DNA of 64,000 bases from Shigella phage CWP003. The number at the start of each line of letters is the position of its first letter. Positions within the stretch are counted from its first letter, which is position 1. A program made the translations under genes and the position numbers. The stretch lies in the sequence record OL856099. One strand, 5' to 3'. Below are positions 1 to 64,000 of this stretch, piece by piece. The notes below the pieces were generated by a model. It ran no database searches. It was not told where the DNA came from and worked only from the letters and a program-made list of their open reading frames with translations.

Positions 1-327
1 AGGAATATGACGGTTGCTGTCATTATTTGGTTTAATAATGAGCATAAAAACGATTAGAAAGATGATGGCTGATATACTTAATTCAATCAGCGCGGCCTGA
101 GATATGGATTGATCTTCATGATACTGCTTTTGCATTTCTGCTTTCTTCTGAGCGCAAACTTCAGGCGATATATAATCGCCTTTTGAGTTGCCATAATAAA
201 TCTCGCCATTCTCAGAAATAAGTCTGCCGCAAATATCCGTTTCAGCCTTTGCGCTTGACATCATAATAACGGTGCCGATGATAGCCGCAATGGTCCAGAT
301 TAGCAGTTGCGATAAAGTGTTGTTCAT
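1..327 (-). CDS. Partial CDS (N-terminus in window, 3' end beyond window start); small membrane or secreted protein
   Basis: ATG at complement 327..325 preceded by AAAGAGG; open for 109 codons to the window edge by manual translation; hydrophobic N-terminal segment (LLIWTIAAIIGTVIMM) and a second hydrophobic stretch (AIIFLIVFMLII). Not in the ORF track because it has no stop in the window. Confidence 0.4.
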   Translation of the reverse strand, partial: MNNTLSQLLIWTIAAIIGTVIMMSSAKAETDICGRLISENGEIYYGNSKGDYISPEVCAQKKAEMQKQYHEDQSISQAALIELSISAIIFLIVFMLIIKPNNDSNRHIP

Positions 328-523
328 GATAACCTCTTTAAATTCCCTTCCCGATGTGGGAAGGGTGAATATTATTTTACGCGAAAGAATAAGCGCGTGC
401 CACACAGCGAGTCCCAACGGCCTTCACCATCCCATACCGACCCAATGCCAGCGGTGATTACACCAGCAGAATTGGCGGCATTGGCCCAGGCAAGTCGTTT
501 AAGCTTCCAACTGCACCAACGAT

Positions 524-787
524 TCACAGTTCGCCTCCAGACTTCAAAATTAATCCCGCATATATTATTGCCAGAGCTAAAGGCGCACCGTCGCCAGCCT
601 CTCTATTCTCTTTGATTTGAAGAGTATCTTTTAGGAATTGAAGTTGAACGTTAAACTCATTTTCGATTCCAAGCACAACAGCAAGTTCTTTTACAGAATC
701 TGCATATGCCTTGTCTAGCACTTCTTTTGGTAATGTTAAAGTCAATTCATTCGCCATTTTCTTTCCACTCCACAAATGTACTGCCAC
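524..787 (-). CDS. Hypothetical protein
   Basis: Track ORF; true start may be the internal Met (MANELT...). No recognised motif. Confidence 0.3.
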   Translation of the reverse strand: MAVHLWSGKKMANELTLTLPKEVLDKAYADSVKELAVVLGIENEFNVQLQFLKDTLQIKENREAGDGAPLALAIIYAGLILKSGGEL

Positions 788-968
788 TTGTTTCTCTATT
801 TAGCAGGTATCTGCCGCGCATTCCACGAAGGCTGAACTCAACCGTCGATGGATTAGATTTTGAAAGCCACATCACTTGACCGTCGAACGGTCCGCCAACG
901 CATGTGTATTTGGCCTTTGGCTCACTCCTTTTGGGCCGCTTTGCCCGCTCTTTGATTGATAGTCTCAT
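747..968 (-). CDS. Hypothetical protein
   Basis: Track ORF in a leftward tandem with neighbours. Confidence 0.3.
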   Translation of the reverse strand: MRLSIKERAKRPKRSEPKAKYTCVGGPFDGQVMWLSKSNPSTVEFSLRGMRGRYLLNRETSGSTFVEWKENGE

Positions 969-1183
969 CAGTCTTCACCTTGAGATTCAAGACAAGTAAG
1001 AACAAGCCACGTCATCGGAAGAATCAAAACCAGAGAAATAAGTGACCAAATGGACCAACACAAGATGACAGACTTGAATGTGTGAACGTCGCCAAACGCA
1101 GCAGTGAAACAAAATCCCATTACGAAAGCAATCGCTGTGGAGTGATTATCAATGGCTTTGATGGCGCGGTCGATGAGTTTCAT
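968..1183 (-). CDS. Small membrane protein (two predicted TM helices)
   Basis: Track ORF; hydrophobic stretches AIAFVMGFCFTAAF and LISLVLILPMTWLVL. Confidence 0.4.
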   Translation of the reverse strand: MKLIDRAIKAIDNHSTAIAFVMGFCFTAAFGDVHTFKSVILCWSIWSLISLVLILPMTWLVLTCLESQGED

Positions 1184-1331
1184 ATTACCTCCGGTTTTGA
1201 GTTAATATGATTATAATGCAGAATTTCAGAAAGGCAAACTTTTTGTGAATTTAAATTAAAAAAATGGCCAGAAATAATCTGGCCAAAAAGATCACCCTTT
1301 ATCCACTACTAAGCTGGAATCATAATTTTAC

Positions 1332-1361
1332 TTGATATAGCTGTCTCAAGCAAACTATAAT
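1332..1361 (+). promoter_or_regulatory. Sigma70-like promoter (TTGATA, 18 nt spacer, TATAAT) abutting the annotated terL ATG
   Basis: Read directly from sequence; the -10 ends 1 nt before ATG 1362. Confidence 0.3.
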
Positions 1362-2822
1362 ATGAATAAAATATTAACACATAATTGGAAAGTCATGTAC
1401 CAGTTGAATCCTGCTTTAAGAGAAGTCTGGAAGACGAAAGCGCGATACAAAGTCATATACGGCGGTCGTGCATCTTCCAAATCGCACGATGCCGCTGGTT
1501 TTGCTATTTATTTAGCGGCAAACTTCAAATTAAAATTCCTTTGCGTTCGACAATTCCAGAACAAGATTTCTGAATCAGTATATACGCTATTAAAAGATAA
1601 AATAGAGATTTCTGATTTTAAAGACGAGTTCAACTTATTAAAGAACTCTATCGAACACAAAAGAACAAAATCTGAATTTTTATTTTACGGTATCGCACGC
1701 AACGTTGACGAAATCAAATCAACAGAAGGTGTTGATGTTCTTTGGCTTGAAGAAGCGCATGCACTGACTGAAGAGCAATGGGACATTATTGAGCCGACAA
1801 TTCGTAAGGAAGGGTCCGAAATATGGATCATATTTAACCCTGATGAAGAGGCTGATTTCGTCTACCAGAACTTTGTCATGCGACCGCCGAAAAATGCCAT
1901 CGTTAAGAAGATTAACTGGCAGGACAATCCATTCTTGTCGCAAACAATGCTGGATGTTATCGCTGGCATGTATGAGCGCGACCCGAAAAAGGCAGAACAC
2001 GTTTATGGCGGAGTGCCGAAGACAGGCGGCGATAAGTCGGTCATCAACCGTGCATTCGTCAAAGCCGCGCTAAACCTCCACAAACACCCTACGCTGGGAT
2101 GGAGCTTGTCAGGGTCTAACCGTATAGGCTTCGACGTGGCGGACGACGGCGACGACTTAAACGCCACAGCATTTGTCACAGGCAACGTATTACGTGGCAT
2201 CAAGACATGGGAAGGTCTGGAAGATGAATTGCTTAAGTCCGCAAGCGGAGTCTGGAAAGACGCATTGACATTCGGCGCATCAATCACCTATGACGCCATC
2301 GGTGTTGGTGCATTTGCTGGTTCAAAATTTGATGAGCTTAATGAGTATGCAATCCATGAAAATCCAACATTCCCAAGAATCGAATTTAATGCGTTCAACG
2401 CGCAAGGTGCTGTTGATGATCCTGATGACGTTTTCCTTGAGTTACCACACGTTGAAATACTCAATAAAGACCATTTCGCAAACATAAAAGCGCAAAAATG
2501 GACTGAGATTGCCGAACGATTCAGAAAGACATATGAGTATGCGACAGGGCAGGCCGTATATCCGACTGATGAGTTGATTTCCATTGACACAGACGGCATC
2601 CCAGAACTTGGGATTCCTGCTTGGACTGCGGAAGAGATTGAGACGTTTCTTTTTGAGATGTCAGCGCCGCGCAAAGATACGTCTGTTCTTGGTAAGTTCA
2701 AAGTTGAATCGAAAAAAGATATGGCAAAGCGTGGAGTCAAATCGCCTAACAAAGCGGACGCAGCAATTATGGCATTGATGAAACCAATTGTTGCAGCATC
2801 CGGCTTCTTCTCTAACCTTTAA
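1362..2822 (+). CDS. terL: Terminase large subunit
   Basis: 486 aa; Walker A-like GGRASSKSHDA near the N-terminus, acidic ATPase-coupling region and C-terminal nuclease-like region typical of TerL; sits at the head of the structural module. Start may instead be Met12 (1395). Confidence 0.85.
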   Translation: MNKILTHNWKVMYQLNPALREVWKTKARYKVIYGGRASSKSHDAAGFAIYLAANFKLKFLCVRQFQNKISESVYTLLKDKIEISDFKDEFNLLKNSIEHKRTKSEFLFYGIARNVDEIKSTEGVDVLWLEEAHALTEEQWDIIEPTIRKEGSEIWIIFNPDEEADFVYQNFVMRPPKNAIVKKINWQDNPFLSQTMLDVIAGMYERDPKKAEHVYGGVPKTGGDKSVINRAFVKAALNLHKHPTLGWSLSGSNRIGFDVADDGDDLNATAFVTGNVLRGIKTWEGLEDELLKSASGVWKDALTFGASITYDAIGVGAFAGSKFDELNEYAIHENPTFPRIEFNAFNAQGAVDDPDDVFLELPHVEILNKDHFANIKAQKWTEIAERFRKTYEYATGQAVYPTDELISIDTDGIPELGIPAWTAEEIETFLFEMSAPRKDTSVLGKFKVESKKDMAKRGVKSPNKADAAIMALMKPIVAASGFFSNL

Positions 2823-2825
2823 CAA

Positions 2826-3065
2826 TTAAAGCATTCCGTGCTGAAGGTCGAGCTTTCTTGCGGCAAACGACCTGGCACGGAATCGCTTACCCGCCCTTAC
2901 TGCCTGTCGAATTTTCTTTTGCAAACACTTACGGTCAAAATCGTTGCGGTCGACGGCTTCGAGTAAATCGCGACGCAGTGCACCCAGTGTCGACTTTTCG
3001 GAGACTTCAACGCCCAGCGCGGCTGCAACATCTTTCAAAACATCGAGTTCGGTTAAAGTTCTCAT
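2826..3065 (-). CDS. Small basic protein with SAP/Rho-N-like helix motif
   Basis: 79 aa; LTELDVLKDVAAALGVEVSEKSTLGALRRDLL resembles SAP/Rho_N; lysine/arginine-rich C-terminus; overlaps the upstream gene by 4 nt. Confidence 0.45.
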   Translation of the reverse strand: MRTLTELDVLKDVAAALGVEVSEKSTLGALRRDLLEAVDRNDFDRKCLQKKIRQAVRAGKRFRARSFAARKLDLQHGML

Positions 3066-3478
3066 TTGATAATCCCCTTGATGTCCGATTCTGCCATAAA
3101 GATTGGAGTGCTGCCGCCAGGAACAATCGAGCGCGTGACCTTGTCAAACATATCGTTTTCTTCAACTTGAATACGATAAAATTTATTTTTGGATGAAGAT
3201 GGGCACAATCCCATAAATTTGCCGATGCCGCGAACGCATTCATCTTCAAAGTATACTGTTTCACCTTGAATGGAGTCGATGTCGTCTACTGGATAGACCT
3301 TGCGACCCAATAGCCACTCATCCAAAGTCGCCTGCAAGACGTTGCGCGCATCTAAAATCCACGGGTCAATAGTAGCACCTTCATATCGCGCAGCAGTGGC
3401 CTTTGCCAGTTCTTCATATTCGCATACGTTAACGACTTCGCCGTTGTGCAAGACGACAAATACAATTGTTGTGCTCAT
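3062..3478 (-). CDS. Hypothetical protein, first gene of a convergent two-gene cassette
   Basis: 138 aa track ORF on the opposite strand to flanking terL and portal; no recognised motif. Confidence 0.45.
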   Translation of the reverse strand: MSTTIVFVVLHNGEVVNVCEYEELAKATAARYEGATIDPWILDARNVLQATLDEWLLGRKVYPVDDIDSIQGETVYFEDECVRGIGKFMGLCPSSSKNKFYRIQVEENDMFDKVTRSIVPGGSTPIFMAESDIKGIIK

Positions 3479-3573
3479 TTCAATCTCCTTTCGTTTGGTT
3501 AACTAAAATATAACTCAAAATGATACAAAAGCAAAATATTTTATGAACTATTTATGATCACCATACATATCAT

Positions 3574-3602
3574 TTGCTTACAAACACATGAATATTTATA
3601 AT
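3574..3602 (+). promoter_or_regulatory. Sigma70-like promoter upstream of portal (TTGCTT, 17 nt spacer, TATAAT)
   Basis: Read from sequence in the divergent intergenic region 3479-3640. Confidence 0.4.
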
Positions 3603-3607
3603 ATAGA

Positions 3608-6016
3608 TTGATTCCCTTTCACTGTCAGGTGGCGTTAACAATGAAAATTCTTGGCATAAAACTCTGGGAGAAGACGCAACCAGAAGCCGAACCAGCGGAG
3701 ATGCCGCCAGGCGACCCATTGGCACCGTTTGAACGCCTTGAAAGGCGCGGCAGCGGTCAACGCTGGGAAAAGACTGAAAGCAATCGACCGACCTTTAAAA
3801 CGGTTGATGACTTCCCTTTATATGAGCCTGATATTAATGGCGATGGTGTTGCAATCATAAAAGGTCGTTCAGTCGATTCCGCAACAGTATCCAAAAAGGT
3901 TATGGATAATGCCTTAAAGAACATCAGTTCAGAAGGGCAAGTAAACCCATACACAGTACCTATTCAACTTCAAAACTGGTATTTGTCACAGTCATTCATC
4001 GGCTATCAAGCTTGTGCCATCATCGCACAGCATTGGCTGGTGAACAAGGCGTGTTCCATGGTAGGCCGCGATGCGGTCCGTAAAGGTTGGGAAGTAAAAT
4101 CCAGTTCTGAGTCAGAATTGTCAGTACAGGCAAGCGAACGCCTAAAGCAAATTGATAAAGAATTTAATATCAAAGAGCACTTAGTTGAAGCCGAACGATT
4201 CAAAAATATTTTTGGTATCCGCGTCATCATATTTGATGTGCGTAGCGATGACCCAGAATATTACAGCAAGCCTTTTAACATTGATGGCGTGACAAAGGGG
4301 TCTTATAAGGGAATCATTCAGGTTGACCCTTATTGGATGATGCCGTTTCTGACGTCTGAAAACACAGCAGACCCTGCATCACAGCACTTCTATGACCCAG
4401 AATATTGGGTAATCAGCGGACAACGTTATCATCGCAGCCACCTCATAATCTTGCGCAACGATGAGCCAGCTGATATTCTCAAGCCGACTTATATTTACGG
4501 CGGCATTCCTCTGACTCAGCAGATTTATGAACGCATCTATGCCGCTGAACGTACCGCCAACGAAGCGCCATTGCTGGCGATGTCCAAGCGTACAACGACG
4601 CTGCGGACCGACGTTGACAAGGCTATTGCCAATGAGCGGTCTTTTGCAGAACGTCTGATGATGTGGATCAAGTACCGCGACAACTATGCAGTCAAAGTGC
4701 TTGGCCAAAAAGAAGAGATGGACCAGTTTGACATCAACTTGTCAGACTTCGACAGCATCATCATGAACCAGTACCAGCTTGTGGCCGCAATCGCAAAAGT
4801 TCCGTCGACCAAACTGCTTGGGACTTCGCCAAAAGGCTTTAACGCCACTGGTGAATTCGAGATGGTCAGCTATCACGAAGAGTTGGAAACGTGCCAGCAG
4901 CATGACCTGACAAAAATTCTCGACCGCCATTACAAAATCCTTCTCAAATCAGAAGGGGTGAATGTCGATGTTAAGGTTGCATGGGAACCAGTTGGCTCAC
5001 TTACTGCTACTCAACTTGCAGAAATCAATGATAAGCGAGCCAACACTGGCAAAACTCTTATTGATGCTGGCGTCATTTCTCCTGATGAAGAGCGCGACCG
5101 CATCAAAGACGACAAAAACAGCGGCTACAACCGTCTGCCGGAAGACGCAGCAGAAGAAACCCCAGGGATGTCTCCAGAGAATATGGCATTGCTTGGCAAG
5201 TCTGCTGGTGAAGTCCTGCAAGGTAAGGCCGATATTGAACAGGCGAAAGCTGATGTCGTTAAGATGGGCGGCCAGTTCTATAGCGAAACAGGTATTATGC
5301 CAGAGGGTGCCGCGCGTGGTGAGTTGGCGGAAAACCCTGACAAAGCGCCTGTCGAAATCAACATGGACGATACCGATGATGAATCAAGCCATCAGGTTGA
5401 TGTCCTAACGCAGTTGAAAGAAGGGCTGGAGGGTATTGCGGATTACTACCTGAAAGAAGGTCAGGATGTGGATTTTGACCCTCAAAAAGATTCACGGTCG
5501 GTGCAACCGTCTACCCTTCCAAGCGTTAAAGGACACGTCGTCAACTTACGCCACAACGTGGGTAAAATGGACGCAGCATCATTACCTAAGATGAAGTTGC
5601 ACGGAATGATTCTTGGCATTGAGAATCCGCGAAACAGCATTCGTAGAGGAAACAGCCTTGACGGTGAATGGGCCGTGAAGATGCCGCACCACTACGGATT
5701 CATCAAGGGCACCAAGGGCGCAGACGGTGATGAAGTCGACTGTTTTGTGGGTCCAAATCTTAAGTCGCCGAAAGTCTTTATCGTGAACCAAAACGATAAC
5801 TACTCTGGCGAGTTTGATGAACACAAGTGTATGCTTGGATTCGATTCAGCAGAAGAAGCGAAAGAAGCTTATCAAGCATCATTTGGTAACGGTTGGAACG
5901 GATTCGACTCAATCCACGAATTAGATGTGAACTCATTCAAGGAGTGGTTGAAGGGTGATTGCTCTCAAGCATACGGAGCACTCAATAATCCTACTAATTC
6001 ACCGAAGCAAGGTTGA
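3608..6016 (+). CDS. Portal protein
   Basis: About 790-800 aa; position directly after terL and before a Mu F-like gene. Track start is TTG; a likelier start is ATG 3641 (MKILG) with AGGTGG upstream. Confidence 0.7.
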   Translation: MIPFHCQVALTMKILGIKLWEKTQPEAEPAEMPPGDPLAPFERLERRGSGQRWEKTESNRPTFKTVDDFPLYEPDINGDGVAIIKGRSVDSATVSKKVMDNALKNISSEGQVNPYTVPIQLQNWYLSQSFIGYQACAIIAQHWLVNKACSMVGRDAVRKGWEVKSSSESELSVQASERLKQIDKEFNIKEHLVEAERFKNIFGIRVIIFDVRSDDPEYYSKPFNIDGVTKGSYKGIIQVDPYWMMPFLTSENTADPASQHFYDPEYWVISGQRYHRSHLIILRNDEPADILKPTYIYGGIPLTQQIYERIYAAERTANEAPLLAMSKRTTTLRTDVDKAIANERSFAERLMMWIKYRDNYAVKVLGQKEEMDQFDINLSDFDSIIMNQYQLVAAIAKVPSTKLLGTSPKGFNATGEFEMVSYHEELETCQQHDLTKILDRHYKILLKSEGVNVDVKVAWEPVGSLTATQLAEINDKRANTGKTLIDAGVISPDEERDRIKDDKNSGYNRLPEDAAEETPGMSPENMALLGKSAGEVLQGKADIEQAKADVVKMGGQFYSETGIMPEGAARGELAENPDKAPVEINMDDTDDESSHQVDVLTQLKEGLEGIADYYLKEGQDVDFDPQKDSRSVQPSTLPSVKGHVVNLRHNVGKMDAASLPKMKLHGMILGIENPRNSIRRGNSLDGEWAVKMPHHYGFIKGTKGADGDEVDCFVGPNLKSPKVFIVNQNDNYSGEFDEHKCMLGFDSAEEAKEAYQASFGNGWNGFDSIHELDVNSFKEWLKGDCSQAYGALNNPTNSPKQG

Positions 6017-6017
6017 T

Positions 6018-6869
6018 ATGGCTTTTAAAGCTTCGAAAAAACGTGAACGCCGCGCACCCGATAGAGTCGGGCGCGGCAGTCCGATAATCCCATCAAACGC
6101 TATTGCGATGGCCTACCGTCGTGAGATGAAAGGTCTTTGCTATGCGATGATTGATGACTATCAGGCAGGAATTTCAGAGTGGCTTGAAAAGAAGCAGGTG
6201 CAGAAGTTCTTTGCGCAAGACTCTGCTGATTCAACATTCCAAACTCTTATGAAACGTCTGCAGCTGAAATGGGCAAAGGCGTTTGCTCGTGTTGGGTCGA
6301 AGATTGCCGCTGATTTTATCAAGTCGGTTGAAAAGGGGGCTACTTCTGCTACATTCGCCAGCCTTAAGTCCGCAGGCATAGAAGCGCCAAAGGCCACATA
6401 TAACAAATTCGTTGAGAACACTCTTAGAACAAGCGAGACGTTTAACACGACTCTAGTGACTAAGGTCGGCGAGGATATTCACAACAGAGTGTACGAAGCA
6501 GTCATGCTTTCGCTGACTTCGCCCGACCCAGCCCAGCAAGGCACGTCAGGCATTCAGGCGGCGCTGCGAAACGTAAAACACTTCTCTGCAAAGAGAGTCG
6601 ACTTAATCGCTAAAGACCAGACAAGCAAATTGTATTGCGTTCTAAGCGATGAAAGGATGCGCCAGAATGGAGTTGAAGAATTTGAATGGGCGCACTCAGG
6701 AGCAGGAAAGGAGCCGCGAATCTCTCATGAACATGTCGACGGAATGAGATTCAAACTTGATGACAAGCGTCTATGGGAAGTGGGCGGAGAGTTGAAGTTC
6801 AAAAAGGGTGACATCGGTCCTCCTGGATGGGCGATACACTGCAAGTGCAGAAAAATACCAATCATTTGA
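6018..6869 (+). CDS. Head morphogenesis protein (Mu gpF / SPP1 gp7 family)
   Basis: Start taken at ATG 6018 just after the portal stop; C-terminal region (...GPPGWAIHCKCRKIPII) resembles the conserved F-like C-terminus; portal-adjacent position. Confidence 0.7.
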   Translation: MAFKASKKRERRAPDRVGRGSPIIPSNAIAMAYRREMKGLCYAMIDDYQAGISEWLEKKQVQKFFAQDSADSTFQTLMKRLQLKWAKAFARVGSKIAADFIKSVEKGATSATFASLKSAGIEAPKATYNKFVENTLRTSETFNTTLVTKVGEDIHNRVYEAVMLSLTSPDPAQQGTSGIQAALRNVKHFSAKRVDLIAKDQTSKLYCVLSDERMRQNGVEEFEWAHSGAGKEPRISHEHVDGMRFKLDDKRLWEVGGELKFKKGDIGPPGWAIHCKCRKIPII

Positions 6870-36779: not shown

Positions 36780-39663
36780 CTGGATACACCTGTTTGATCA
36801 CGTCGACGATAAACATGTCAATACCTTCAAGCTTGCGGCCTTTCATCAGAAAGAATGCGCCGTTCCCGACGTTCTCTGCAATGTACTTACCGTATTTCTG
36901 GAACTTCTCTGGGCGAATCCTGAAGCGCATTGGCGAGTCGGTCGAATCGTCCTTGCACATAAGGTCAATGAACTGAGTCTCAAGCTTGTTTCCATACTGG
37001 TCAAACTCTGCGTAGCGGCCATCAGCTTGAAGACCCTTTTTAAGTTTGCCGTGCTTTGTATAAATGCCGCGCTCAAGACGTTTACGGATGCGTGTCGCTT
37101 CGTTCTCGTCAGCCAGCACTTTCTTGGTCAACTTGCCGATTACTATTGCACGCTCGTCATCGCCGACTTCCTTCATCTGGCGTATTGAAGCACCGGAAGT
37201 AACGCCAATCAGATAGGGGTCATTATACGCCCAGCCAAACTTGGTGTGCATCTCTGTAAGGTCGCCGTATTTGACTTCAGCATTGGCCAATGCATCCTTT
37301 TGTTTTTGCGTTAAGGTTCCGGCTTCACGCGCTTCGATGTACTTCATCGCCTTCACCATTCCGTACCCTTTGGCATTCATTATGCCGCCGATTAGCTTTC
37401 CGTTAGCGATGGTCCAGTTCATTGAAGAGTGATCAGGGTCGATTGGCACATAATCCACGCCTTCCTTTGCAAGTTCACGTAATATCGCAATCGTCTGGTC
37501 TTCGTCCTTAGCAGCGCGTAAGCAAGCAGCGGCAAATTCCAACGGGTAGTGTCGTTTAAGCCACAAGGTCCAGTAAGTCACGACCGCGTATGACACGGAG
37601 TGTGACTTGTTAAAGCCCCATGACCCGAACGTCGCCATCGCCTGCCAAAGCTTTCTTGCATCCGCTTCCGGTACGCCGTTATTTATTGCGCCTGCAACGA
37701 AGTCTTCGCCAAGCTTGTTAAAGTATTCCTCACCCTTACGACCTGACATCGCCTTACGCACAGCTGACGTTTTCGCCCAGTCGAATGAACCAATCTCTTT
37801 AACCACGGCCATGATTTGCTCTTGGTAAAGAAACACGCCATAAGTCTCTTTTAAGTACGGCTCAAGCTGCGGCACGTCGTACTCAATCGGCGCACGTCCT
37901 GCCGCGCGTTCAATGTATTTCTGGGCCATACCGGACGACAACGGGCCAGGTCGGCCAAGTGCTGTCAGGTTATCGATTTTGTTAAAGTTATCAACGTGCA
38001 CAAAGTTGGTCACTGAGCGTACAGCGTCGCCTTCAAACTGGAAGATGCCTGACATCTTGTTTTCGTTAAGGATGTCAAGGACGCTTTGGTCATCAAGCTT
38101 GATTCCGTACAGCGTTTCAGCATCTATCACGCCAGTATCAGAAATGATTCCGAGGGTGCGAAGACCCAATGCATCAAGCTTCAAAAGGTTAAGGTATTCG
38201 CTGTCAGGCTTATCAATTTGTGCAATCCCTTCCGCCGTTACCGTACAGTAATCAGAGATTGGGTCATTACAAACGATGATTCCCGCTGCGTGAACGCCAG
38301 TGTGGGAAGGGTGAATCTCAAGGTCACCCATGCATCGCGCGGCATCGGGATATTTAGCCACAAACTCTTGGCCCGTGGTCGTTGTTGCAAAGGTGTCCTC
38401 CAGGCCGTGGCCATAACGGGCGTCACCGGATGAGTATTCAAGCAATGCGTTTTTAATGTTGGCCGTTTCGTGATATCCAATGTTGAATTTCTTACCAACC
38501 TGAGCCATTACTGAGTTGGCCTTAAGCGTGTTGATGTTGCCAAGTTTTGCAACGTTCATTTCGCCGTATTTTTCTTTAAGGTAATCAAACACCATATAGC
38601 GTTTGGTATCCTCAAAGTCAATATCAATATCAGGAAGGTCTGCGCGGCTTACGTCAATGAATCGGGCAAACAGTAGCTTATACGGGATTGGGTCGACCTC
38701 CGTGATGCCGAGGCAATAACAAACCAGTGAACCAGCCGATGAGCCGCGAGCGGGTCCGACGAGCATTTTTGTTTTTGCGAATCGTACAAGGTCCGCTACC
38801 ACCAGAAAGTATGAGTCGAAATCTTTCAGCTGAATCTGGTGAATCTCTTCGTTGAATCGGTCCTCATATTCCTGAGTCCATTCTTTGATGTGACCTGCCT
38901 TAAGGCGGTACTCCATCCCCTCACGAGCAAGCTTTACCATGTCACCAGCAAGGTGGATAATCGGTGCCTTGCGCAGCTTCAGGTCAAGCCCAACGATTCC
39001 ATTTGCAATATCAACCGCATTGGCCGTTGCTTGATTCAACTCGTCTTCGGTCAGGATTCCTTTAAGCTGTTTGCGCAAGTCTTCCGCGTCAACGATGCAG
39101 TGCGGCTTAACCGTGTCTCGAACTTCCCATGCATAAGCAAAGTCAACGTGCTCAGGTGAAGGCATGTGGTTGTATCCGGTTAAAACCAGCGGCCTTCCGT
39201 TGCTGCGGTGAGCCAATACCTGGCGCTTGGCCAAAAGGAACGATGATGGGTTGACGTCTATATAATCATAGTCCTCTGGCCGCAGCAGCTCCACGGCCCC
39301 GCCACAGAATTTAACGACGCCATCGAGCGCCCCGAACTCTGCACGGGTCAGTCCGCCGCGCTGTGTTGCAAGCGTGGTCGCGTTGTAAAAGGATTTCAGG
39401 TCAAGCGCCAATATCCAAGCCTTCGGTTTGAATCCCTTTTTCGGGTCCGCATCAGGGTCAATGATTGGAATCTCCATACCGAACATAGGCTTGATATCAT
39501 TCTTCTGACATTCCTTTTCCCATCGAACGTGACCCCATGTATTGTTATCAACTAATGCCGCGACTTCGCAGCCCAACTCTTTGAGCCGTGCTATAATTTC
39601 AGGATGCCGTCCATATACTTCTTTGAACGTGTAACCGCTGCGAACTCTCAATTGTGGAAACAT
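36766..39663 (-). CDS. dnaE: DNA polymerase III alpha-like replicative polymerase (DnaE family, PHP domain)
   Basis: 965 aa; N-terminal PHP-like region (VRSGYTFKEVYGRH) and overall DnaE-like core. Confidence 0.8.
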   Translation of the reverse strand: MFPQLRVRSGYTFKEVYGRHPEIIARLKELGCEVAALVDNNTWGHVRWEKECQKNDIKPMFGMEIPIIDPDADPKKGFKPKAWILALDLKSFYNATTLATQRGGLTRAEFGALDGVVKFCGGAVELLRPEDYDYIDVNPSSFLLAKRQVLAHRSNGRPLVLTGYNHMPSPEHVDFAYAWEVRDTVKPHCIVDAEDLRKQLKGILTEDELNQATANAVDIANGIVGLDLKLRKAPIIHLAGDMVKLAREGMEYRLKAGHIKEWTQEYEDRFNEEIHQIQLKDFDSYFLVVADLVRFAKTKMLVGPARGSSAGSLVCYCLGITEVDPIPYKLLFARFIDVSRADLPDIDIDFEDTKRYMVFDYLKEKYGEMNVAKLGNINTLKANSVMAQVGKKFNIGYHETANIKNALLEYSSGDARYGHGLEDTFATTTTGQEFVAKYPDAARCMGDLEIHPSHTGVHAAGIIVCNDPISDYCTVTAEGIAQIDKPDSEYLNLLKLDALGLRTLGIISDTGVIDAETLYGIKLDDQSVLDILNENKMSGIFQFEGDAVRSVTNFVHVDNFNKIDNLTALGRPGPLSSGMAQKYIERAAGRAPIEYDVPQLEPYLKETYGVFLYQEQIMAVVKEIGSFDWAKTSAVRKAMSGRKGEEYFNKLGEDFVAGAINNGVPEADARKLWQAMATFGSWGFNKSHSVSYAVVTYWTLWLKRHYPLEFAAACLRAAKDEDQTIAILRELAKEGVDYVPIDPDHSSMNWTIANGKLIGGIMNAKGYGMVKAMKYIEAREAGTLTQKQKDALANAEVKYGDLTEMHTKFGWAYNDPYLIGVTSGASIRQMKEVGDDERAIVIGKLTKKVLADENEATRIRKRLERGIYTKHGKLKKGLQADGRYAEFDQYGNKLETQFIDLMCKDDSTDSPMRFRIRPEKFQKYGKYIAENVGNGAFFLMKGRKLEGIDMFIVDVIKQVYPDGNK

Positions 39664-58943: not shown

Positions 58944-59502
58944 TGTTGATTATTGCACGCAGCACGCTTGCACATGCGAAGTTGTAAAGGATGATGAAGG
59001 CGGCTATGTTGAATATGAGGACTATGCCGCGTTGGAAGCGAAATACAGTGAAGTAAAAAGTCGCGTCGAGCTGGAAGCGAAACATAGTGAAGTTAAAACG
59101 TATGCAGTAAACTGCAACGACGCGTGGCTTAATACAAAGGGTGATGACACCTCTGGTTCATATGTCAAGTTTTCTGATTATGCCGCGCTGGAAGCGAAAT
59201 ATAGTGAAGCGCAACGCGAGTTGGTTGCATTACGCTCACAGGTCCGTGATGCATCGGCGCTCGTTAAGCAGTTGCACGATGTTGTTGCTACTATAGTCGT
59301 GGATGTTGATGCGCCGAAGGAAGAAGCGTGGACCGTGTGGCACGGTGGAGAGAATCCGGTGCCTGGGGAAATGGTTGAATACAAGCTGCGCAATGGAGAA
59401 GATAAAGTGCTGTCAAGACTCTCTGACCATCTTCACTGGGGTCATATAGGCGCGTTAAAGGGCAGCGACATCATCGCTTATCGGGTCGTTAAGGAGGGGT
59501 GA
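58927..59502 (+). CDS. Early protein with internal DYAALEAKYSE repeats and the shared C-terminal module
   Basis: Three copies of (E/S)DYAALEAKYSE-like repeats; C-terminus WTVWHGGENPVPGEMVEYKLRNGED...DIIAYRVVKEG. Confidence 0.5.
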   Translation: MIQRYDVDYCTQHACTCEVVKDDEGGYVEYEDYAALEAKYSEVKSRVELEAKHSEVKTYAVNCNDAWLNTKGDDTSGSYVKFSDYAALEAKYSEAQRELVALRSQVRDASALVKQLHDVVATIVVDVDAPKEEAWTVWHGGENPVPGEMVEYKLRNGEDKVLSRLSDHLHWGHIGALKGSDIIAYRVVKEG

Positions 59503-60035
59503 TGGGTAACAATGCAGGATGGGGCAAGCCGCGATACTCCAAACTTGCCCACTACTTTGACAATGGCGAACAAATCAGCTTGTGCGGCAAATTCAATAAG
59601 GGCAATACGGAGTTGACCGACTCTCAAGAAATGGAGTCAAGTTTAACAATTGGTGATTGCGCGAAGTGTCGCAAGGCATTATATGAATTATTAACTCTAA
59701 AGGGATTGAAAGTTGCAAAATCAAGGGATGAATGGGTCATGAACGTCTGTGAAGGGAATACAGAATTAATGGATGAATGGCTAAAGACGGATGCGGTCAA
59801 TGCCATATTCAAAAGGAATTATAAGACCTGTATGCGTTACAAGATGAAAGATGATATTATTTTTATGGTATTATCTTATTCAAGGAACACAACGGACGTC
59901 AAAAAGCTTCGACAATATCGCCACAAGGTCATGTGTGAATTGCGCCGTTTAGGAGTGATTGTTGATAATAATGTCATTAAAACGGAGTTGGAGAAGCGGG
60001 ATAAAAGGAATGGTGACTGGAAGGTCAGCGGATAA
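59499..60035 (+). CDS. Hypothetical protein with N-terminal Cys pairs (possible zinc ribbon)
   Basis: Track ORF; ...LCGKF...DCAKCRKA. Confidence 0.4.
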   Translation: MMGNNAGWGKPRYSKLAHYFDNGEQISLCGKFNKGNTELTDSQEMESSLTIGDCAKCRKALYELLTLKGLKVAKSRDEWVMNVCEGNTELMDEWLKTDAVNAIFKRNYKTCMRYKMKDDIIFMVLSYSRNTTDVKKLRQYRHKVMCELRRLGVIVDNNVIKTELEKRDKRNGDWKVSG

Positions 60036-60300
60036 AGAACACTGTATTGCGTGTTTTGAATAATGGGATGTGTACAATTGGTCGCTTTACGCGGCCTTTT
60101 GTTGTTGTTTGGGTCGTGTTTCGTGATTGAATAATTATGAGGCGATGTTTTATTTATTAATTGTGCGGAAATATTTAGAAATATATATAGACAGGATTGT
60201 TAATATTTTAATAGTGTATGGCTATCGGTCCGTGGTGTTTGTTAGGAATTATCTATGGATTGAAATTTTAGTGTCGTGAAACGTGGTGTTTGAACATATT

Positions 60301-60660
60301 TGATACGCGTAAAATACGGCTAAAAATTAAGCGTATCATGGCTGCAGGCCGCGCCGTTCCTGGATTCCTCTTTTCCAAATTGGTACACCCTTACGTCATG
60401 ATACGTCATGGTTTTTTATCCGTATCAGTGTACAGCCCTTGCCGCGCCTGGCTTGTACATTAATCTTACGGATGATACGGATAAAACTGGGCATCGTTAT
60501 ATATATAATTTGAAAAATTAATTAACTCCATTTTGAATTAATTTAAATTAATTTTTTTCTACATCCTCATACTTATGTTAATTTATATATAACGTATTAT
60601 CCGTAAGATATAAGTAAAAACAAAGACTTGCGGCAATACGGATGATACGTCATGATACGC
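60301..60660. repeat. Iteron locus 2: GATACGGAT/ATCCGTATC and GATACGTCATG repeats around an AT-rich core; shares a 21-mer with locus 1
   Basis: Seen directly: ACGTCATGATACGTCATGG, TTTTATCCGTATCAG, AATCTTACGGATGATACGGAT (identical to 8029-8049), AT-rich 60490-60590, TTATCCGTAAGAT, CAATACGGATGATACGTCATGATACGC. Confidence 0.65.
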
Positions 60661-60806
60661 TTCAACCAGCCAGTAGCGGCTAAGTCATTGATTTGCATAA
60701 CAAGCGGCGAAAGGGATGGACTTCTTTTATACGTATCAAACAGTACACCACGCACCACGGTCCGATATTCATTCAGCACTATGATTTATGTACGTTTACA
60801 GCCAAT

Positions 60807-60835
60807 TTGAACATCAATCTGCACTTGAATATAAT
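60807..60835 (+). promoter_or_regulatory. Sigma70-like promoter (TTGAAC, 17 nt spacer, TATAAT)
   Basis: Read from sequence; followed by two tandem TTGCACTAT motifs overlapping the RBS and ATG of the downstream gene. Confidence 0.45.
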
Positions 60836-60887
60836 GTTCAATCATTATATAATTCACACTATTAATTTGCACTATGGGATTTGCACT

Positions 60888-61361
60888 ATGAGTCAAGATT
60901 ATGTAGCAATGCCTGAAGACTTTGAAGACCCGCGATTTGCAGAGCATAATCAGGCATTATTCGATGAGTTCATCGACCTTGTTATTCAGGGCCATGACAT
61001 GCGCGCAGCTTTTGCACTAGTATTTGGCATGGAGGTTGCGACCGATAACTACACTGGCCAGCGAATCCTGTGCACTCAGCGCAATCCGTACTACAAGATG
61101 CGCTACAAAAAGCGTATGGAAGAGATGCCATTGAAGGAATTGTGGAGCGTAAAGAGTTCCATTCACAATTTAGTGAAGCTTGTGCGTGATCCAGAAGTCG
61201 CAGCATCAGCCAAGCTTAATGCCATTCGTGAACTGAATATCATCTACGGCATTACGATGATTGATGAAAACGGCAATAGTAAAATGGGCCGTTCCATGGA
61301 TGATTTCTACAAGGATTTTGGAGAGGCGGCCAAAGAGGGTGAGCAATTCTCCCGCCACTAG
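60888..61361 (+). CDS. Small helical DNA-binding-like protein (possible regulator or small terminase-like protein)
   Basis: 157 aa from ATG 60888 in frame with track ORF 60693..61361; central stretch IDLVIQGHDMRAAFALVFGMEVATDNYTGQRIL reads as an HTH-like segment. Functional call speculative. Confidence 0.4.
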   Translation: MSQDYVAMPEDFEDPRFAEHNQALFDEFIDLVIQGHDMRAAFALVFGMEVATDNYTGQRILCTQRNPYYKMRYKKRMEEMPLKELWSVKSSIHNLVKLVRDPEVAASAKLNAIRELNIIYGITMIDENGNSKMGRSMDDFYKDFGEAAKEGEQFSRH

Positions 61362-61380
61362 CCAATTTGCACTATAAAAC

Positions 61381-61414
61381 GGCCCTAGAACACATTTTCT
61401 CCACTTCTAGGGCC
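61381..61414. other. Perfect 10-bp hairpin (GGCCCTAGAA...TTCTAGGGCC, 14-nt loop) just after a motif copy
   Basis: Seen in sequence; no U-run follows on the plus strand. Confidence 0.4.
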
Positions 61415-61475
61415 ATCGGTAATACGACGGGGAAGGCTGCAACCATAAACGCGTTAGAAAGTGTATTATTATAAG

Positions 61476-61739
61476 TCATCTTTTAGTCACTTTACGTAAC
61501 AATTTACGACCTTCCGCCGTCCAGTCGAACGACTCCACCAGCAAATTTGCACTATAACCTAAGACGATGCGCCCTTTCTCGTTATCTACCCGCCAACAAG
61601 TCTCAAATAGCATTCGATTTGCACTATTAACTATCGCCGCAACGCGCGTTGGGTAAGCGCAATTTGCACTATGGTCATAAAGGGATAAGGTGCGACCACT
61701 TCCGATGGACAACGTAGCGATGAGAATAAGCGTATTCAT
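61476..61739 (-). CDS. Possible small ORF overlapping three motif copies (each read as Ser-Ala-Asn)
   Basis: Track ORF; GGTGG RBS before the ATG; coding status uncertain because the repeated motif dominates. Confidence 0.3.
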   Translation of the reverse strand: MNTLILIATLSIGSGRTLSLYDHSANCAYPTRVAAIVNSANRMLFETCWRVDNEKGRIVLGYSANLLVESFDWTAEGRKLLRKVTKR

Positions 61740-61789
61740 AAGCCACCAATTTGCACTATGAAAAGCGACCCCGAAGGGCCGCCATTCGA

Positions 61790-62416
61790 TTAGATAATCT
61801 GGAAGGTGTAGGACTTGTTGCCGAACTCGAAGTTCAAGCGTCCCGCTTCTTTAAGCTTCATGCGGAAGCGAATGTGCTTGCTATCCGGTAAGCCCAGCGC
61901 GGCGAACGCTACGCGGACTGATTTGAACTCGCCTACACCCTCGACCATAACGGCGTTACGGGTGAGACGCTTTTGCGCCACTTCCTTGTTATCCCAACTT
62001 TTTGCAATACCTTCGCTATTCGAACGGCGATGGGAAGGAGTTCCATTTTGCACTACGCAACTTGCACTATCGTTTAGGCCGCTTTTAACGAAGGCTTCAT
62101 ACTCTTCGTCGGTCATCGCGTCGAGTTCTTCCTGGGTCGGCTCGGCCTTTTTGACGACCGCACGCGCCTTATGCGTTTTTACATCGCTGGACACTTCCTC
62201 GCGCGGCTTCGCGTCTGGGATGGGCGATTCGTTGGACGGCTCATCGAGCGCGTTTAAGGACTCGATTAACGCGATTACGCGAGTCTCGGCGGTCCGGCGG
62301 TCCGCAAACTTCTTAATCGGTTTTGAGCCGGAATTTGCATTATAGAATGCAACGAGGTCGGCGGTCTTAGTTGCGATAACGTCGCCGCTAGTAGAAAAGC
62401 GATTTAAGCTAACCAT
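61790..62416 (-). CDS. Hypothetical protein (basic/acidic mixed), CpG-rich codon usage
   Basis: 208 aa track ORF; TAGGAG RBS 7 nt before the ATG; contains motif copies at 62048, 62062 and 62335. Confidence 0.5.
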   Translation of the reverse strand: MVSLNRFSTSGDVIATKTADLVAFYNANSGSKPIKKFADRRTAETRVIALIESLNALDEPSNESPIPDAKPREEVSSDVKTHKARAVVKKAEPTQEELDAMTDEEYEAFVKSGLNDSASCVVQNGTPSHRRSNSEGIAKSWDNKEVAQKRLTRNAVMVEGVGEFKSVRVAFAALGLPDSKHIRFRMKLKEAGRLNFEFGNKSYTFQII

Positions 62417-62496
62417 AATAAACTCCTATTTGTTAGGGCGCTAGGCGCGAAAGAATTTTATTAAAGCGCCGCGCACGACGCTCTAAAAATCCTCTC

Positions 62497-62811
62497 TTAC
62501 TCTTCGTCGTCTTCGATTAATTCGAGGGCGAAGGCGTAAGCTTTGCTATCGTAATTAACTAAAACGGCGAGTTCGAACTCGTTAATAAACGCCGTTTTAC
62601 CGCATAAATTTAATTCCGCATCGACTTCGAAGAATCCGTTTTCGTCGCGCTCTAAGCGAGAAGCAGCGAGTTGCTCGATTACCGTCGCGTCGTTAATTTC
62701 TTCGCCTAAGCGAACGCCGGAGAATTTCGCGAGAATTTCGCCGTAAGTAAGCGTAACGCCCTGGACTTCGGCGGTTGCGTTTTCGAGGGTAAAGCGGGTA
62801 ACGATAGCCAT
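62497..62811 (-). CDS. Small acidic protein
   Basis: 104 aa; TAGGAG RBS; acidic C-terminus (ELIEDDEE). Confidence 0.5.
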   Translation of the reverse strand: MAIVTRFTLENATAEVQGVTLTYGEILAKFSGVRLGEEINDATVIEQLAASRLERDENGFFEVDAELNLCGKTAFINEFELAVLVNYDSKAYAFALELIEDDEE

Positions 62812-62951
62812 AACAAACTCCTAGTTGGGAGAGGCGTTAACGACCTATTCGTTAACTCATCCCGTCCCGATATGAGTACATTATAATATAGTGTAGAAAA
62901 AAGTAAAGCACTTTTTCGATAAAAATGCGATAAATTATTTTATCTTTTTTC

Positions 62952-62979
62952 TTTACTTCTTCGTACACTCGCGTATACT
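62952..62979 (+). promoter_or_regulatory. Promoter A (TTTACT, 16 nt spacer, TATACT) followed by conserved box GTTTATATCGAGACGGG
   Basis: Read from sequence; paralogous to promoter B. Confidence 0.45.
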
Positions 62980-63035
62980 TGTTTATATCGAGACGGGCGA
63001 TGGCCCTTTCTTCTACTAGCATCGGGAGCTTTATT

Positions 63036-63338
63036 ATGACTACTTTAATCTCTTCCATCCTTACTTACGACGAAGACCGCTTAACCGTTCGCTCTCTTAT
63101 CGCCGCCGTTAACGCGGAACTCGAAACTAGCATTATTAAAGCGCGCGCCGTCGCCTTCGTCGGCCTTTCCTTCGACGATATTAAGTATGCAGAGTATAGC
63201 GCCATTCGCGTCGTTACTACCGACGATAACGCCGTTACCCTTATCGAGACGGTTACGCCTCGCGGCGAAGCGTTAATTATCGTCGAGTATATCGACGTAG
63301 AAGGCGATAAAGCTTATAAATATTTTATCGCAGAATAA
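63036..63338 (+). CDS. Small hypothetical protein
   Basis: 100 aa from ATG 63036 in frame with track ORF 62979..63338; CpG-rich codons. Confidence 0.45.
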   Translation: MTTLISSILTYDEDRLTVRSLIAAVNAELETSIIKARAVAFVGLSFDDIKYAEYSAIRVVTTDDNAVTLIETVTPRGEALIIVEYIDVEGDKAYKYFIAE

Positions 63339-63350
63339 CGAAAAAAGTGC

Positions 63351-63379
63351 TTTACTTCTTCGTACACTAAGACTATAAT
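63351..63379 (+). promoter_or_regulatory. Promoter B (TTTACT, 17 nt spacer, TATAAT) followed by conserved box GTTTTATATCGAGAGGGG and a 5'-UTR hairpin
   Basis: Read from sequence; hairpin GGTAGCGA-ATAGG-TCGCTACC at 63412-63432. Confidence 0.45.
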
Positions 63380-63446
63380 GTTTTATATCGAGAGGGGATG
63401 AGGTAGCGAATAGGTCGCTACCCTCCCGACTAACTAGGAGAATATT

Positions 63447-63737
63447 ATGATTACTTTAGCCGCTATCCGTTCCGCTCGCGTCGAAACTTCCGAAAACTCT
63501 AACGTATTTGGCGAAAAACTTAAAAACGTTTATCTCTTTAACGTAGATGCGACTATCGAAGAGCTTCATAGTCCTATCGATTTTAGCGAATTTACGGAAC
63601 TCGAAGAGGAAGATATTACTACCTTCCGCGTTACTATCGAAGGTAAGGTTTATTTTGCTACGGAGTTCGGCGGCGAATATCTCGCGGTATCCGAAGGCGA
63701 AGGCCGTTACTCTTTCTTTAAAATCGTCTCCTTATAA
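63447..63737 (+). CDS. Small acidic hypothetical protein
   Basis: 96 aa track ORF with AGGAGAA RBS. Confidence 0.45.
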   Translation: MITLAAIRSARVETSENSNVFGEKLKNVYLFNVDATIEELHSPIDFSEFTELEEEDITTFRVTIEGKVYFATEFGGEYLAVSEGEGRYSFFKIVSL

Positions 63738-63901
63738 TACCCTTCCGTTACTAATAGGCCGCGCTTAGTCGCGGCTTTTCTTCGTCCCTATCTCGATGCG
63801 CTTCTCCGCGAAAACTCCTTTATCCTTCCCTTCTTCGTCGCATAATCTTCGTCGAGATGCGCCTTAGTTCGCATAACAGGTATTACGTTAAATGGAGAAC
63901 A

Positions 63902-63975
63902 TCGCGTAAGTCCTTGTTTTATATAGACACCTATATCGGACCGTTAGGGAGGGTCGCGTAAGTCGTTGTTTTATA
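63902..63975. repeat. Two direct 22-bp repeats TCGCGTAAGTC(C/G)TTGTTTTATA
   Basis: Seen directly at 63902-63923 and 63954-63975; contain the same GTTTTATA core as the boxes downstream of promoters A and B. Confidence 0.5.
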
Positions 63976-64000
63976 AAGGCGCAAAACTTTCCCTTCGTTC

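Follow-up and report, generated by a model that had tools for sequence, protein, structure and literature searches.

A short DNA motif is repeated on one strand in and around terS, the gene for the small terminase subunit, close to one end of the genome of Shigella phage CWP003 (OL856099). The stretch analysed, 64,000 nucleotides in length and referred to here as the window, is that of a Wifcevirus, a PB1-like E. coli myovirus of ~68 kb; between 59500 and 64000 it is 98% identical to phage WFH and 95% identical to phage WFC. In Wifcevirus genomes, the direct terminal repeat (DTR) measures ~3.7 kb (Korf et al.); it spans positions 1–3673 (3,673 bp, PhageTerm) in phage Mansfield and is included in the 72,472 bp of WFC as a repeat of ~3.7 kb. 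Since position 1 of both WFC and Mansfield falls on 60530, the array starts ~320 bp (322 bp) in from the left end of the physical genome. It occupies the left 1.8 kb of the terminal repeat, with copies lying 0.3–1.8 kb from the terminus, and the window ends ~200–310 bp short of the right DTR boundary. The gene in the middle of the array encodes a protein that matches the TerS of Pseudomonas phage E217 (PDB 7UXE) with E = 1e-45. Convergent with terS runs a minus-strand unit comprising p104, p208, p87 and a 35-codon open reading frame, with a divergent promoter pair near 62880–62980. Coordinates are collected in Table 1.

Table 1. Features of the terS region (window positions, except where another genome is named)
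Feature	Position	Strand	Description
Left DTR boundary	60530		Physical left end of virion DNA; aligns with position 1 of WFC and of Mansfield
terS promoters	60807–60853	+	Two overlapping, consensus sigma-70-type: TTGAAC-17-TATAAT and TTGAAT-17-TATAAT
Motif copy	60852 (ATTCACACTAT)	+	Two mismatches; overlaps the terS −10
Motif copy	60865	+	Exact; between the terS −10 and start codon
Motif copy	60879	+	Exact; contains the terS ATG at 60888
terS	60888–61361	+	Small terminase subunit, 157 amino acids; homologous in sequence and fold to the solved E217/PB1-type TerS
Motif copy	61010–61020	+	Degenerate; inside terS
Motif copy	61365–61375	+	Exact; between the terS stop and the bidirectional terminator; invariant in 10 Wifcevirus genomes
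Bidirectional terminator hairpin	61381–61414	both	Predicted from sequence
p87	61476–61739	−	Conserved small protein (87 amino acids) with a signal-peptide-like N-terminus
Chi (GCTGGTGG on the minus strand)	61535–61542	−	Abuts motif copy 61545; only Chi in this part of the DTR
Motif copies	61545, 61617, 61662 (to 61672)	+	All exact; antisense inside p87
Motif copy	61749–61759	+	Exact; between p87 and p208, directly past the p208 terminator (minus-strand direction) and before the p87 ribosome-binding site
p208 terminator	61765–61782	−	Intrinsic hairpin, predicted from sequence
p208 (phrog_4730)	61790–62416	−	Two conserved domains, variable acidic linker
Motif copy	62046	+	Two mismatches; antisense inside p208
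Motif copy	62060	+	One mismatch here, exact in most relatives; antisense inside p208
Motif copy	62333 (to 62343)	+	One mismatch; antisense inside p208
(G)AATCATT array	Mansfield (L015) 3535–3595; L013 3400–3581; L022 12105–12120 (reverse-complemented coordinates)	one strand	
Chi clusters	L012 323–1824; L014 411–1836; PA1 (L018) 4861–6433; MTx (L016) 179–1276; L022–L024	one strand	

The 11-mer ATTTGCACTAT is found between 60852 and 62343 in seven exact copies, in ten when one mismatch is allowed and in twelve when two are allowed, all on the plus strand, which bears out and extends the count of at least ten same-strand copies in 1.5 kb given by an earlier sequence-only reading of this DNA. Outside the array, no exact copy exists on either strand of the window and only one copy with a single mismatch, at 39001; matches with two mismatches are scattered and occur at the level given by chance. 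The 9-mer TTTGCACTA has nine exact copies, all on the plus strand at 60866–62055, and none elsewhere in the 64 kb. For the 12-mer AATTTGCACTAT, which the earlier reading had singled out for a count against shuffled sequence, there are five exact copies in the window versus 0.02 expected. The array is statistically extreme, strictly one-stranded and beyond chance. With up to one mismatch allowed and apart from the copy at 39001, the motif is confined to one genome location both in the window and in the complete genome of the annotated relative Bas100, and in these ~68 kb it precedes no other operon.

The copies are spaced irregularly, at 14–353 bp, and eight of the twelve are antisense to minus-strand genes, either within them or a short way downstream. 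Since they are sense in the terS unit and antisense in the minus-strand unit, their orientation follows the genome and not the genes. The spacings of 180, 72, 45 and 87 nt that the earlier reading had listed as multiples of 3 are correct; in relatives, spacings are not multiples of 3. Also correct is its remark that each of the three copies within the minus-strand frame of p87 encodes Ser-Ala-Asn, but this phasing carries little weight because one of the minus-strand frames reads TAG across the motif, leaving just two possible frames. A repeat-containing coding region, which had been offered as one explanation, does not fit: p87 is genuine and conserved as a gene, conservation is limited to its NSAN tripeptide, and further copies are intergenic or lie in other genes. 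The hairpins said to follow several copies do exist in two cases (61381–61414 and 61765–61782), but these are intrinsic terminators of the convergent transcription units. The order of p208 terminator, motif copy at 61749 and p87 ribosome-binding site is kept in relatives.

Within Wifcevirus, the copies are conserved in position. An initial search for p208 homologs gave only near-identical proteins, and diverged relatives were reached via TerS (45–70% identity) and p208 homologs (metagenomic contigs L011–L014 and L022–L024 and Pantoea phage PA1). The motif, in the form RAT[T/C]TGCACTA[T/C/G], is found again in eight diverged lineages with TerS identities of 40–70%, in 7–10 copies that surround terS and closely follow it, the lower end of this identity range being marked by PA1 (genus Kylevirus) with 40%. 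The DNA of these lineages no longer aligns, all but one of the counted copies lie on the terS strand, and most of their positions are not shared between lineages. For TGCACTA, the numbers on the terS strand and on the opposite one are 8/0 in PA1 and, within 20 kb each, 9/1 in L022, 7/0 in L023 and 10/0 in L024. That copies are maintained at differing positions indicates that the motif itself is under selection. When 46 copies from five lineages are aligned, conservation does not extend past 11–12 bp.

The motif is absent from Serratia phage MTx, Salmonella phage PCSE1, Pseudomonas phages E217 and tabernarius and Aeromonas phage Gekk3-15, despite the presence of TerS and p208 homologs in all of them. 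It is present in all lineages with a TerS at least 40% identical and absent at 37% or below. Its presence in diverged relatives and absence from more distant ones identifies it as a selected, lineage-specific DNA signal. TerS residues 64–65 follow the same division, being [Q/K]64-R65 in all motif-bearing and [E/D]-[S/A] in all motif-less relatives; the whole module is syntenic, however, and proteins other than TerS therefore also track the presence of the motif. Other arrays are found near terS in three of the motif-less relatives (AAAAAATAAGCATGC three times in MTx, GTAATTTGG four to five times in E217 and AATATCGGC five times in PCSE1), and as lineage-specific arrays these sequences are only suggestive. 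Directly after the MTx terS homolog and inside the 3,566-bp repeat predicted by PhageTerm, AAAAAATAAGCATGCTTTGTA(T)AGG is repeated three times in direct orientation (L016, 960–1095). These copies could be the counterpart of the motif in that lineage.

The sequence-only reading had given most prominence to a likeness between CACTAT(A/G) and positions −7 to +1 of promoters for T7/SP6-class single-subunit RNA polymerases. Our data do not support this interpretation, in which the copies would be promoters for such a polymerase or an otherwise unknown phage enzyme, and we consider it highly improbable. The resemblance extends to the CACTAT(A/G) core and no further, with only the hexamer CACTAT shared. 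T7-class promoters are conserved over ~23 bp (−17 to +6) and are placed before co-oriented genes, and the array has neither property; since nothing beyond 11–12 bp is conserved, there is no AT-rich block at −17 and no initiation region. Eight of the twelve copies would drive antisense transcription, and none is situated upstream of any other gene block. The earlier reading was right that the window lacks a gene for a single-subunit RNA polymerase, and we likewise found none in the Bas100 annotation, in the gene list of vB_Eco4M-7 or in a Pfam scan of large unknown open reading frames. Thus, what the sequence-only reading had observed is confirmed, and its lead interpretation is rejected. A sigma-54 reading of the motif was also considered and rejected, and CRP, MarA and TrpR sites were dismissed by eye against their consensus sequences.

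Among the alternatives given by the sequence-only reading were a pac site and an operator array, and these are now favoured: the array is centred on terS, lies near the terminus and overlaps the terS promoter. TATAAT is found at the same place upstream of terS in nine of nine lineages and is directly followed by a motif copy in five of them. We tentatively propose, with somewhat less than even confidence, that TerS recognises the array as a signal of the pac/cosB type and that the array also serves to repress the terS promoter. According to this proposal, RATTTGCACTAY would be a cis-acting protein-binding site, repeated in one orientation over ~1.5 kb, centred on terS just inside the left DTR boundary and read by the TerS ring of the phage itself. 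By binding to the array, TerS would single out concatemeric phage DNA as the packaging substrate and position the large terminase for a cut at the repeat boundary close by (~60530), and the uniform orientation of the motif would set the direction of translocation. The array would then be a functional equivalent of lambda cosB or of the pac sites of SPP1, P22 and P1. Finally, through the three copies over the −10, transcript start and start codon, TerS would silence its own strong sigma-70 promoter as the protein accumulates.

Several observations point to TerS as the reader. Recognition sites in or beside terS are the rule for pac and cos phages such as P22, SPP1, P1 and lambda (review PMC9611059). 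As in lambda cosB (R1–R3, bound by gpNu1) and the pac sites of SPP1, P22, Sf6 and P1, short sites are repeated at terS near the terminase cut, and the asymmetry of the signal gives a direction. Lambda has the order cosN-cosB-Nu1. The succession of cut site, binding sites and terS in lambda is thus the same as that of terminus, sites and terS here. Taken together, the normal location of such sites, the lambda-like order, the uniqueness of the array, the promoter overlap and residues 64–65 make TerS the most economical reader. An overdose of TerS is known to harm the related phage E217, and together with the copies over the terS promoter, this makes autoregulation plausible.

There are also differences from the known systems and points that weigh against recognition by TerS. 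Known cosB and pac sites are compact (22–200 bp), consist of one to seven elements and belong to cos or headful packagers, whereas the present array has 12 direct copies over 1.5 kb within a 3.7-kb exact repeat and is ~10 kb (on the physical genome) from terL. This wide and irregular spacing (12 sites at 14–353 bp) is one ground for keeping our confidence in TerS below even. E217, a Pbunavirus, resembles Wifcevirus in having a homologous TerS, a terS gene far from terL and a p208 homolog following it, but the genomes of E217 and other Pbunavirus members are without the motif. Purified E217 TerS shows no appreciable DNA binding in vitro, and binding of TerS to pac is generally weak. Within the genus, the motif shows no excess conservation over its flanks (13.6% versus 17% of columns variable, p = 0.4), in a footprinting comparison that has no power at the 92–96% nucleotide identity of the aligned 2 kb. 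The true terminase signal could instead be a second array, (G)AATCATT, near the other repeat boundary. Finally, the TerS of T5-like phages and the present TerS show no detectable homology (hhalign probability 0.4%) although T5 carries a repeat with the core GATTTGCAC (see below), which speaks for a different, possibly host-encoded, reader. The clustering of the motif with co-oriented Chi sites suggests a role in the processing of DNA ends.

The (G)AATCATT array lies on one strand outside the window, ~100–200 bp inside the right repeat boundary. It has a period of ~15 bp and two to five exact copies per lineage and is conserved in at least three lineages (Wifcevirus, L013 and L022).

A search of IMG/VR for contigs with paired copies of the motif led to T5-like genomes. 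Direct repeat D (DRD, in Repeat Region 3 of the terminal repeat) of T5 (L169, AY587007, 9672–10409) contains nine copies of TGTGCAAATCCGACA, the reverse complement of TGTCGGATTTGCACA, on one strand. The inner boundary of the 10,139-bp terminal repeat divides them into six copies inside and three outside. The core GATTTGCAC is common to DRD and the Wifcevirus motif; the T5-like contigs L126 (L126/L127) and L151 (835–950) carry TCGGATTTGCACTA[T/G] itself, and some T5-like phages hold the full GATTTGCACTA[T/G]. L151 represents a very distant T5-like pre-early region with genes for a TerS and for A1-like and A2-like proteins, and it contains many DnaA boxes. Both arrays are found in E. coli phages with a long exact DTR and consist of copies on one strand with irregular spacings (25–330 bp in T5, within ~470 bp of the repeat boundary), and in both, GATTTGCAC points from the nearest boundary into the repeat. 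On the other hand, T5 is a siphovirus with no relation to Wifcevirus, its array lies across the boundary in non-coding DNA, and the conserved flank is upstream in the T5-likes (TGTCGG; TCG) but downstream in Wifcevirus (TAY). We estimate the probability of the two motifs sharing an 8-mer by chance at ~1e-3, a figure to be read with the fact that T5 was found by searching for this motif. The resemblance may reflect a shared host factor, convergence or chance. Sequencing of the DRD region dates back to 1987 (Davison), and the literature surveyed assigns DRD no function.

Searches for the motif also returned matches of other kinds. The many IMG/VR contigs with arrays of ATTTGCAC at a 15-bp period were read as pentapeptide-repeat coding sequence (GCA-AAT-CTN, Ala-Asn-Leu), and contigs with 9-bp tandem repeats are most likely due to chance; both were discarded. 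A scan of the contig collection for paired motifs gave ~100 scattered matches in unrelated taxa, none of them in Enterobacterales. We found no copy of the array in complete E. coli genomes or in PLSDB plasmids, and there is thus no evidence for satellites borrowing it.

The single Chi site of the region lies on the strand that reads 5′-TAGTGCAAAT-3′ and has the orientation that is active for RecBCD entering at the left genome end. In relatives, the terS-proximal repeat holds clusters of 4–10 Chi copies in ~1.5–2 kb, and none is in the opposite orientation within a cluster. The counts of Chi interspersed with the motif are seven in PA1 and in L012, five in L014, five in L022 (six in the locus), nine in L023 (ten in the locus) and six in L024 (seven in the locus), and the motif-less MTx has four co-oriented sites. 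T5 has two co-oriented Chi sites 1–1.6 kb further in. Wifcevirus proper keeps a single Chi in the terS-proximal repeat.

These findings raise the possibility, which we rate as real but rather less than probable, that a reader other than TerS, either a host protein or an early or virion protein of the phage, acts on the nearby DNA end, the array then being an element of the same kind as T5 DRD. In concert with the co-oriented Chi sites, it might serve end protection, recombination or concatemer formation, or control of DNA entry. Such a reader would agree with the 5–10 co-oriented Chi copies interspersed with the motif in each of seven motif-bearing relatives, with a one-stranded, irregular DRD that straddles a repeat boundary and shares GATTTGCAC, and with the lack of any detectable shared phage protein, be it a homologous TerS or a repeat-encoded protein, between the Wifcevirus and T5-like groups. 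The estimate for chance sharing of the 8-mer, in a phage found through this very motif, weakens the argument, and the differing flanks suggest that the readers may differ. Moreover, the Serratia phage MTx keeps its Chi cluster without the motif, and a phage-specific reader therefore fits better than a conserved host one. To our knowledge, no E. coli factor has this motif specificity. DnaA is not a candidate: aligned to the DnaA box (TTWTNCACA), the motif reads ATTTGCACT, with an invariant T at position 9, where A is required, and an invariant G at a free position, and we found no consensus DnaA boxes in the repeat. It is conceivable, but somewhat unlikely, that Wifcevirus-like GATTTGCAC-core arrays and T5-like DRD form one class of cis-elements that marks one boundary of the long DTR in enterobacterial phages. 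A common host factor or convergent terminases would read them, and co-oriented Chi sites would take part in defining and processing that DNA end.

Being short and directly oriented, the copies could also be replication-origin iterons, in which case a phage initiator (the VapE/D5-like primase-helicase, for example, or the RepB-like primase) would bind them. The ori and crr iterons of satellite phage P4 are TGTTCACC, and the copies would resemble these. The phage encodes RepB-type and VapE-like primases, and an AT-rich stretch is located nearby at 60530–60640. Against an origin, the spacing is wide and irregular without regular phasing, most copies are inside genes, and the array is at terS and the terminus rather than near replication genes. 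There are no DnaA boxes, and the presence or absence of the motif is not tied to the primases. We regard iterons as improbable.

A regulator of transcription, p208 for example, might use the copies as operators to silence the two convergent early units or to set up a roadblock in them, in which case the array would have nothing to do with packaging. p208 shows weak structural resemblance to the Rho N-terminal domain, the Ku70 C-terminal DNA-binding domain and I-HmuI, and these predicted SAP/Rho_N-like and homing-endonuclease-like folds hint at nucleic-acid binding. Its C-terminal domain is, however, equally conserved (52–64% identical) in motif-less phages, making p208 a poor candidate for the reader. 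The other strong promoters of the repeat (62880–63380) carry no copy, most copies are far from any promoter, and the sites are asymmetric and unpaired. Operators of this kind, although slightly easier to envisage than iterons, thus seem unlikely as well.

One GenBank record already annotates the terS gene and the terminal repeat. What appears to be undescribed in the literature is the array, with its polarity and its conservation across genera, as well as the overlap with the terS promoter, the association with Chi and the resemblance to T5 DRD. Essentially nothing is known about recognition and precise two-boundary cutting in phages with long exact repeats (PB1-like, T5-like and SPO1-like). 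The PB1 group, to which Pseudomonas phages in wide therapeutic use belong, has no known packaging site. The array supplies a candidate ligand of 11–12 bp, conserved across genera, for purified TerS. Knowledge of it would aid the engineering and rebooting of Wifcevirus genomes and the prediction of transduction, and the core shared with T5 DRD offers a starting point for explaining an element listed for decades without an assigned function.

Other features of the region were noted in passing. Pfam and PHROGs scans of the repeat-encoded proteins yielded no function, and an Rfam scan of 59500–64000 gave no match. p87 has conserved Cys residues and a D-W pair, has homologs in all motif-bearing lineages and looks secreted. 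p208 always lies within the minus-strand block downstream of terS, and its C-terminal domain (EFKSVRAAFAALxLPDSKHIRFRMKLK) keeps its 52–64% identity even in Pseudomonas and Aeromonas phages. Small early genes in the repeat's right half are transcribed from three near-identical, strong sigma-70-like promoters at 62880–62980 and 63351–63379 (TTTACT-16/17-TATAAT or TATACT, preceded by GCACTTTTT or AAAGTGCTTTACTTCTTCGTACAC), none of which carries the motif. Two direct copies of TCGCGTAAGTC(C/G)TTGTTTTATA are present at 63901–63922 and 63953–63974 in the non-coding right part of the repeat. Far from the array, the portal protein of Bas100 (L004, 2247–4622; window ~3640–6020) has a C-terminal inorganic pyrophosphatase domain (PF18823, E = 4e-46).

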